This document shows positions 60,685 to 62,967 of a DNA stretch of 64,000 nt, one piece after another. Each line of letters starts with the position of its first letter. The first letter of the stretch is position 1. Both the position numbers and the translations under genes were made by a program. The stretch comes from a virus: positions 32,001-96,000 of the IMG/VR virus record IMGVR_UViG_3300025121_000776; one strand, written 5' to 3'. The notes under the pieces are model-generated. The model searched no databases, was not told the DNA's origin, and saw only the letters and a list, made by a program, of their open reading frames with translations.

Positions 60685-61449
60685 ATGAAATTTGTAAGAA
60701 TTGTGAACAAATCAAAAAATTTACTTCCAGATTATGCAACAGCATTCTCTGCGGGAATAGATTTAAGGGCAAGTTTAGAAAATGAAACCCCAGTATCAAT
60801 TAGACCACTTGAAAGGAAATTAATTAAAACAGACTTGTTTATTGAACTTCCTATTGGTTACGAAGCAACTATTCGTCCTCGGAGTGGTTTAGCTTTAAAA
60901 AACGGGATTACTGTGTTAAATAGCCCAGGAACGATAAACTAAAAAAAATTCTATCGTACTTTGTCGGTTTAAAAATTTTTAAACTTGACATGTATAGAAC
61001 AATCTGTCGTTTTAAAACAGGGTGAATTGCTGGAAAATCTTGTATAAATTCACAAGACAATCAGCAGCCAAGCTTTGGAAGAAATTCCTTAGAAGGTTCA
61101 ACGACTAATTTCCAAGTCTTAGCAAGTAAAGTTGAAGACGGTAACGAAAACAAGAGCGCCCTGCAACATTATAAATGTTGATGATATAGTCTGACCTGCA
61201 TGTATAAATAAAGATGCAGAAATCAAAGATAAAGAGCTTTGGTGATAACAAAAGCGAGATGCTGATTATAGAGGTAATATTGGTGTAATTCTTATTAATT
61301 TATCAGAAGAAGAATTTGTCATAAATCAAGGTGATAGAATAGCTCAAATGGTTATTGCAAAACACGAAAGAGTTGAGTTGGAGTCTGTACTAATCTTAAA
61401 CGATACAAAACGTGGTTCTGAGGGATTCGGTCACACAGGTAAAATATAA
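60685..61449 (+). CDS. dut: trimeric dUTPase split by a group I intron (exon 1 60685-60935, exon 2 61257-61449; 147 aa spliced)
   Basis: Exon 1: [19 protein letters not shown]. Exon 2 (missed by the ORF track): [26 protein letters not shown]. Joining gives ACG AT|A GAT = T-I-D in frame. Confidence 0.95.
60936..61256 (+). ncRNA. self-splicing group I intron (IA-like), 321 nt, no internal ORF
   Basis: 5' exon ends in U and the intron ends in G; P AATTGCTGGAAA (61025), Q AATCAGCAG (61059), R GTTCAACGACTA (61096), S GATATAGTCTG (61183); P3 CAGGGTG (61018)/CGCCCTG (61157); P7 GACTA/TAGTC. Confidence 0.93.
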
Positions 61450-61701: not shown

Positions 61702-62967
61702 ATGAAACAATTTATTGAATTAATTACAACCATCCTCAAAGATGGTAGAGTAAATACAGACCGCACTGGAGTGGGCACAGTATCTACATTTGGACATCAA
61801 TCTGTATTCTATATGAAAGATGGGTTTCCTTTGCTAACATTAAAAAAAACGTTTTACAAAGGAATTATTCATGAGCTTCTTTGGTTTCTTAATGCGGTGC
61901 CAGAAGAATATAAAAAGTTTGGCAACACAAACATTAAATATTTGGTTGATAATAACGTTCATATTTGGGATGAGTGGGCGTATGTAAAATACAAAAAACA
62001 CACAAGTACCATAGAAGAGCCAGATATGTCAGTTCTTATAGATGACCCTCAACGAAATAATAGCGTTAGAGAAATGACTCAAAAAGAATTTGCAGATGCA
62101 ATTAAAAACGATGATGAATTTGCTATGAAATGGGGAGACCTTGGTCCAGTTTACGGAAAACAATGGACTGATTGGGGTGGCTACACTAAAAAATATCAAG
62201 AACAAAGAAGTTATGGTGGAAGCTTTGGTGGCGAAACAAGCATTGTTTATGGCGATTGGAAAGAAGAAAAAATCCCAGGCATTAATCAAATTGATGTTCT
62301 TATTAATACTCTAAAAAATAGGCCAGACGATAGGGGAATTATGGTTTCAGCATGGGATGTAGCAGAATTGGGAAAAATGGCACTTAGGCCTTGCCATACC
62401 ATATTCCAATTTAAAGCAGAGCCACTTACCATTGATGAAAGAATAGATTTATTTATAAAAGATGGTGGTGACGTATTGGATTTGGGAATTGGGGGGAATG
62501 ACGAACAAGTAAGTTCCATTTTAACAACATTGGAAATCCCCAAATTTAGGCTTTCTTTACAGCTTTATCAACGCAGCGCAGATACTTTTTTAGGCGTAAG
62601 TTATAATATTGCAGGGTATTCTTTACTTTTGCATATGGTTGCTCAAATTGTCAATATGGTGCCATATAAGTTTGTTCATACCTTTGGAGACTTACACTTA
62701 TATCTTAATCATAAAGACCAGGTAAATGAGTTATTAAACAGAACTTATAACGAAGGGGAAGGAATAGACCCCAAAGATGAAATAGATTACTGGGATAACA
62801 TTAGAGAAACTTTATCAGATAATTGTGTGGGACATTATCGTGGACCAGAACTTCCAACATTAAAATTAAATCCAGCTATAAAAAATATTTCTGATTTTAG
62901 AATTGAAGATATAGAAGTTTTAAATTATAATCCACTACCAGCAATAAGTGCACCAGTAGCAGTATAG
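61702..62967 (+). CDS. thyA: thymidylate synthase ThyA with insertions
   Basis: DRTGVGT, IIHELLWFL, IWDEW, DLGPVYGKQW, ALRPCH (catalytic C), YQRSAD.FLG...NI, GDLHLY.NH, I.APVAV. Confidence 0.95.
   Translation: MKQFIELITTILKDGRVNTDRTGVGTVSTFGHQSVFYMKDGFPLLTLKKTFYKGIIHELLWFLNAVPEEYKKFGNTNIKYLVDNNVHIWDEWAYVKYKKHTSTIEEPDMSVLIDDPQRNNSVREMTQKEFADAIKNDDEFAMKWGDLGPVYGKQWTDWGGYTKKYQEQRSYGGSFGGETSIVYGDWKEEKIPGINQIDVLINTLKNRPDDRGIMVSAWDVAELGKMALRPCHTIFQFKAEPLTIDERIDLFIKDGGDVLDLGIGGNDEQVSSILTTLEIPKFRLSLQLYQRSADTFLGVSYNIAGYSLLLHMVAQIVNMVPYKFVHTFGDLHLYLNHKDQVNELLNRTYNEGEGIDPKDEIDYWDNIRETLSDNCVGHYRGPELPTLKLNPAIKNISDFRIEDIEVLNYNPLPAISAPVAV

Follow-up and report, generated by a model that had tools for sequence, protein, structure and literature searches.

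The dUTPase gene (dut) of an uncultured groundwater phage is very probably interrupted in codon 84 by a group I intron of subgroup-IA-like build (60936-61256), which is a deletion derivative of an HNH endonuclease-bearing element and whose splicing we infer from sequence. Coordinates refer to the window, that is, the whole 64,000-nucleotide stretch of the phage record that was analyzed. The gene and its intron are laid out as follows.

60685..60935, + strand: dut exon 1 (PF00692), 83 codons plus two nucleotides of the Ile84 codon (phase 2)
60936..61256, + strand: group I intron (RF00028) of 321 nt without an ORF, beginning after U60935 and ending with omega-G61256
61257..61449, + strand: dut exon 2, which completes the Ile84 codon with its third base and runs from Asp85 to the stop codon; motifs III-V

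A dUTPase gene split within motif III

The split is directly visible in the gene. An 85-residue ORF on the + strand (60685-60942) ends with NSPGTIN and a stop codon; exon 1 matches positions 5-64 of the Pfam dUTPase model PF00692 (E 6e-9), and the frame from 61258 in exon 2 matches positions 69-129 of the same model (E 2e-17). Removal of 60936-61256, joining 60935 to 61257, gives ACG AUA GAU GCU GAU and a 147-residue dUTPase of the trimeric type, in which motif III (GTIDADYRG) is restored. The intron thus interrupts codon Ile84 in phase 2, one base 5' of the codon for the catalytic Asp of motif III. Intron-less homologues from IMG/VR align without a break to residues 1-144 of the joined protein, with identities of up to 73.6% (L009), and the closest of them share its motif III residues exactly. 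The preliminary description of this DNA had proposed both the split and the joined protein and had suggested a search for intron-less dut alleles; the collinear Pfam halves and the unbroken homologues bear the proposal out.

The adjoining thymidylate synthase gene (61702-62967) reads as a single uninterrupted ORF of 421 residues. Residues 2-350 of its product extend no further than positions 1-227 of the Pfam model (266 positions); the protein thus carries large insertions.

The same allele, with the intron, recurs in assembled DNA contigs from several groundwater runs and is therefore not the artefact of one assembly; some of these runs may themselves have supplied the window sequence. No intron-less allele was found among four DNA runs, nor did any contig join across the intron. 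All eight runs with the locus were groundwater or soil DNA and none was RNA; exact spliced-junction patterns gave 0 matches in metagenome contigs and 0 in viral contigs. Separately, a comparison with window positions 61014-61252 revealed one 9,940-nt contig (runs X7/X8, contig record 9) on which the P4-P6 core of the intron family occurs in three or more separate copies; this contig comes from another groundwater or soil sample and is probably a phage region with several introns.

Assignment to group I

We used the Rfam covariance model RF00028 to classify the intervening sequence. A search of 901 nt returned a match at 60961-61213 (+ strand) that spans the full model length (1-253) and scores 79.8 bits (E 1.7e-20), well above the gathering score of 50 bits, in agreement with the group I assignment made earlier from the letters alone. 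The same match was missed when the Rfam library was run on the whole 64-kb window at gathering thresholds with default filters. The 901-nt search shows that this null result is a filter artefact, and negative whole-window Rfam results in such AT-rich genomes are unreliable; counting a missing covariance-model hit against the intron, as the preliminary description had suggested, would therefore have meant a false negative under default filters. For annotation, the 85-residue "truncated dUTPase" and the orphan C-terminal half become one 147-residue gene, which standard pipelines miss because default Rfam filters find nothing in the 64-kb window.

An RF00028 search of the entire 186,855-bp virus record reproduced the window match and found no second copy of the intron. 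The whole intron folds with -72.1 kcal/mol (z = -3.3), and minimum-energy folds recover P1, P3-P6, P8, P9 and P9.1. The omega-G at the 3' end is present in all dut introns compared, and the junctions of the window intron are fixed by the P1/P10 covariation described below together with the collinearity with intron-less homologues.

Covariation supports the P3-P9.1 core

To evaluate the core, 13 dut introns were aligned from the guide to exon 2 (alignment A2) and a hand-drawn structure was laid over them, comprising 59 pairs in 12 helices from P3 to P9.1, including the P7 pseudoknot. The window carries the following elements.

61018-61024 with 61157-61163, + strand: P3, 98.8% paired, 4 compensatory pairs
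61028-61033 with 61061-61066, + strand: P4, 100% paired, 4 compensatory pairs
61038-61042 with 61053-61057, + strand: P5, enclosed by P3
61067-61097, + strand: P6 with GAAA-capped P6a/b, enclosed by P3
61103-61107 (GACUA) with 61187-61191 (UAGUC), + strand: P7 pseudoknot, the guanosine-binding helix, 100% paired
61109-61112 with 61146-61149, + strand: P7.1, 100% paired, 4 of 4 pairs compensatory
61116-61120 with 61135-61139, + strand: P7.2, 67% paired
61164-61169 with 61175-61180, + strand: P8, enclosed by P7
61196-61201 with 61214-61219, + strand: P9, recovered in the minimum-energy folds
61222-61228 with 61237-61243, + strand: P9.1, 91% paired, 6 of 7 pairs compensatory

Across the 12 helices and 13 introns, 87% of cells were paired, compared with 30-42% when the partners were slid, and 39 of the 59 pairs showed compensatory changes; the observed values were reached by none of 500 shuffles. 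In P7, for example, GACUA/UAGUC of the window is replaced by GCAUA/UAUGC and GCGUA/UACGC in relatives. RNAalifold independently predicts P3, P4, P5, P7.1 and a 3' hairpin. The two helices between the 5' strand of P7 and the 3' strand of P3 (P7.1 and P7.2) constitute an IA-like build. Together, these data agree with the preliminary description, which had listed P3, P5, P7, P8, P9 and extra sequence between P7 and P3' as marks of such an intron: these helices, and those between P7 and P3', are all present, and they covary.

P9.1 combines a variable stem with a near-invariant loop, AUAAA(G/A)AG, and is followed by the invariant GAUAACA (61244-61250). The invariance of loop and tail suggests a conserved tertiary contact. 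The loop with its closing G-C pair and the GAUAACA tail (window 61229-61250) is common to phage group I introns on more than 113 IMG/VR contigs, in many host genes (L171-L282). Neither the general P3-P5 pattern nor that of P9.1 is specific to dut, since each matches over 110 contigs of IMG/VR, for the most part in genes other than dut.

The internal guide and the splice sites

The elements that would define the splice sites lie upstream of P3 and are not separated from it by a P2.

61006..61011, + strand: internal guide GUCGUU (3' strand of P1), pairing with AACGAU at 60930-60935, with a U60935-G61006 wobble at the splice site
61002..61005, + strand: P10 guide AUCU, pairing with the first four nucleotides of exon 2 (AGAU, 61257-61260)
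60937..61001, + strand: L1, the extended loop of P1, a long imperfect hairpin capped by 60967-60984 in the minimum-energy fold

In 19 of 19 distinct dut introns the six-nucleotide guide is fully complementary to the last six exon bases and places a G opposite the splice-site U, a match with a chance of about 4e-4 per random 6-mer; the guide itself keeps a constant position, 16-18 nt upstream of the P4 motif. Seven exon/guide combinations were observed: AACGAU/GUCGUU (window), CACGAU/GUCGUG, AACCAU/GUGGUU, AACGGU/GCCGUU, GACUAU/GUAGUC, GACUCU/GGAGUC and GACGCU/GGCGUC. P10 can be formed in 18 of these 19 introns by 2-7 contiguous pairs of differing sequence (4 bp in the window), L283 having none. 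In the minimum-energy fold of 60920-61015, 60928-60936 pairs with 61005-61013, so that P1 closes L1, and the intervening 65 nt form one long hairpin in which GUCG at 60963 is paired internally. The covariation of the distal guide and this fold therefore place the guide at 61006-61011. The preliminary description had nominated GUCG at 60963 instead; that motif does exist at this position, but the conserved guide lies elsewhere.

A version of the same group I intron in which P1 forms through the proximal UUUGUCG (60960-60966), paired with CGAU and AAA on the two sides of the splice site, and 60967-60984 serves as P2, strikes us as improbable. By eye, one can draw 7 bp that include a U-G wobble, and in crAssphage, too, a proximal copy (GUAGUU) lies 58 nt into the intron. 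However, such a copy is absent from L283, L290, L296 and most other dut introns, whereas the distal guide is found in all of them at a fixed distance from P4, and the minimum-energy fold, which pairs 60963-60966 inside the L1 hairpin, builds P1 from the distal guide.

Some features count against the favored reading: P10 has only 4 bp, a P2 is missing between the guide and P3, and L1 is long. With the guide at 61006-61011, the 65-nt L1 still contains two alternative exon-complementary stretches, GUCG (60963) and UAUCGU (60953-60958), which could compete with P1. A second exon-complementary stretch of this kind, about 20-60 nt from the 5' splice site, recurs in several dut introns: UAUCGU and UUUGUCG in the window (60953-60966), AUCGUUCC in L285/L294 (intron nt ~30-40), AUUGUGCC in L011 (1717-1727) and UUUGUAGUU in crAssphage (L001, ~1809-1817). 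These stretches covary with the exon end, and an alternative hairpin built from them could hold the 5' splice site or mask it.

Applied to the mapped helices, standard group I chemistry would proceed as follows. P1 would form in the pre-mRNA between GUCGUU at 61006-61011 and AACGAU, the 3'-terminal six bases of exon 1, with the U-G wobble at the splice site, and a free guanosine bound in P7 would attack after U60935. AUCU at 61002-61005 would hold AGAU of the 3' exon in P10; omega-G61256 would then enter the G site, and the exons would be ligated as ...ACG AUA GAU... to encode the 147-residue enzyme, with GGAACGAU joined directly to AGAUGCUG at the predicted junction. Unspliced RNA would yield only the 85-residue fragment, which lacks motifs III-V, consistent with the earlier view that full-length dUTPase depends on splicing between AU and AGAU.

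Loss of the HNH endonuclease gene

We compared the window intron with its closest relatives, L307 (Ga0172381_10055633) and L311 (Ga0316608_1015781), whose introns of 913 and 926 nt occupy the same site and use the same guide. Their ribozymes are 84-85% identical to that of the window, and in a maximum-likelihood tree of the introns, from which the guide was excluded, the window groups with these two at 98/97 support. In both, L1 contains a 217-residue ORF with a match to HNH_3 (PF13392, E ~3e-9). In alignment A3, the window follows the 5' leader of L307/L311 up to 60971, passes through a gap of ~609 columns, and resumes the match from 60972.

60971..60972, + strand: deletion joint (alignment A3), with ~609 nt of L307/L311 missing
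60973..61047, + strand: remnant of the HNH ORF, its last ~24 codons (alignment A3, ORF tails of L307/L311)

The deleted segment comprised the ribosome-binding site, the ATG and ~195 codons of the HNH gene, and the remnant overlaps the guide, P3, P4 and P5. The deletion is read directly from the alignment, and the window intron is, on these sequence comparisons, best described as a deletion derivative of an HNH-bearing mobile intron. With only ~24 C-terminal codons left, homing unaided would no longer be possible; the intron had already been described as lacking a homing endonuclease of its own, and indeed no ORF of at least 30 residues is present on its + strand. Among the genes from 53 to 64 kb of the window, Pfam detects no free-standing endonuclease.

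The ORF-less state is not confined to the window. Other dut introns without an ORF are L283 (300 nt), L290 (260 nt) and L296 (238 nt). The core of L290 shares 99.5% identity with that of L284, whose 923-nt intron could hold an ORF. The intron of L289 (11909-13160), which occupies the same site as that of the window, carries a 347-residue LAGLIDADG_3 endonuclease gene in place of HNH, which indicates that the same ribozyme lineage and the same site host different endonuclease cargo.

It could be argued that splicing was lost after the endonuclease and that the intron is a dead relic within a dut pseudogene, a reading with which the deletion of the mobility gene is compatible and which we consider quite unlikely. 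None of the core helices is disrupted, and where the intron departs from L307/L311 the changes are compensatory. The reading frames of the two exons remain open and retain each motif residue found in the intron-less homologues, and the match between guide and exon is still perfect. Still further from plausible, to the point that we discount it, is the absence of any intron, with the two dUTPase halves made as separate polypeptides or the spacer being an unrelated insertion: the physical split alone would allow this, but exon 2 has neither a start codon nor a ribosome-binding site at its 5' end, its first Met would give only 33 residues, and the spacer matches the group I model over its full length.

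Two insertion sites within motif III

The window intron belongs to a lineage that occupies two sites in motif III of dut. Site A interrupts the sequence after GGN ACN RU, with A GAU following the intron (G-T-I, after the second base of the Ile codon, then D), and is used in the window, L283, L285, L289, L294 and L305-L312. Site B, 7 nt downstream, lies between G-T-I-D-x and x-Y-R-G and is used in crAssphage, L247, L284, L286, L287, L290, L296 and others. Similarity of the core does not track the site: identity to the window intron reaches 73% in crAssphage (site B) but only 60-62% in L285 and L289 (site A). On the tree, the site label requires 4 changes, of which well-supported branches force at least 2, and placing all site-A introns in one clade is rejected by the AU test (p = 0.017). 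Repeated retargeting between the sites is the likely explanation suggested by these sequences, while recombination between introns could also be a source of the two-site pattern.

By extension, a broader scenario can be drawn, which we regard as evenly balanced between right and wrong: the lineage would have moved repeatedly between sites A and B, with guide and P10 guide rewritten and HNH or LAGLIDADG genes swapped or lost, and the window would represent the stage of the homing cycle that follows endonuclease loss. The exon-complementary stretches in L1 of the window might then be the remains of a device for holding the 5' splice site during transcription of a long ORF.

Relation to known phage introns

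The window intron adds one more mobile intron inside an active-site motif of a nucleotide-metabolism gene. Group I introns at conserved catalytic sites of such genes are established in phage T4 (td, nrdB and nrdD (sunY), subgroup IA2). Additional helices likewise lie between P7 and P3' in the T4 introns, certain variants of which have lost the endonuclease; their endonuclease genes are known from loops other than L1. At E 1e-5, the window intron has no detectable DNA similarity to them.

Within dut, more than 30 introns of the window's lineage were found in IMG/VR and JGI metagenomes. A pattern combining the intron 3' end with the YRG codons retrieved 23 IMG/VR contigs, every one of which (23/23) continues into dut exon 2, and a guide-plus-P3 pattern retrieved 8 more from JGI metagenomes, again all (8/8) in split dut genes. 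A diverged subtype (L011, also L290, L296 and L284) is distinguished by P4 AACGGG/UCCCGU and P7 GCGUA/UACGC. The L011 intron (IMGVR_UViG_3300045988_103280, 1691-2498) has the layout of the window's with a more diverged core, and gave no Rfam match at E <=0.01. In papers on Basilisk-like, Moonbeam, jumbo-phage and S. aureus prophage genomes, introns and dUTPase are both mentioned, and none places an intron in dut.

The closest counterparts, L307 and L311, for which we found no published description, lie between GGAACGAU and AGAUGCUGAU, the window's site, and share its guide GUCGUU; they keep the complete 217-residue HNH_3 gene, whereas the window intron lacks ~609 nt of it. These introns and that of the window form a clean pair, with and without the gene, for studying endonuclease loss.

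The best match among GenBank phage DNA is the prototype crAssphage (Carjivirus communis, BK010471.1), where gp34 is annotated as "putative Dut dUTPase, contains intron insertion" and gp35 as "putative intron-encoded HNH endonuclease", and where the dUTPase has been described as split by an intron-encoded HNH endonuclease (PMC7551546). These records, with the metagenomic dut introns, overturn the earlier suggestion that dut might be a new insertion site. The window intron is an unremarkable selfish element; its kind is already annotated in crAssphage dut and is widespread. Because dut introns are annotated in crAssphage and common in metagenomes, it opens no new question, and the documented endonuclease deletion and the two-site pattern are modest extras.

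The comparison with crAssphage is close. The host gene and motif (dut, motif III) and the intron lineage are the same, the cores are 71-73% identical over their whole length, and the crAssphage ribozyme scores 65.9 bits with RF00028. The layout is shared as well: no P2, the guide directly before P3, the helices P7.1 and P7.2, AUAAAGAG as the loop of P9.1, and a GAUAACA tail. On the tree, crAssphage and the window clade are sisters (81/83 support). The two differ in position and cargo. By our own reading, the crAssphage intron lies 7 nt further downstream (between GTLDY and GYRGE, guide GUAGUC), and it extends over 1016 nt with a 284-residue HNH gene in the P1 loop, whereas the window intron has 321 nt and retains only the remnant of such a gene.
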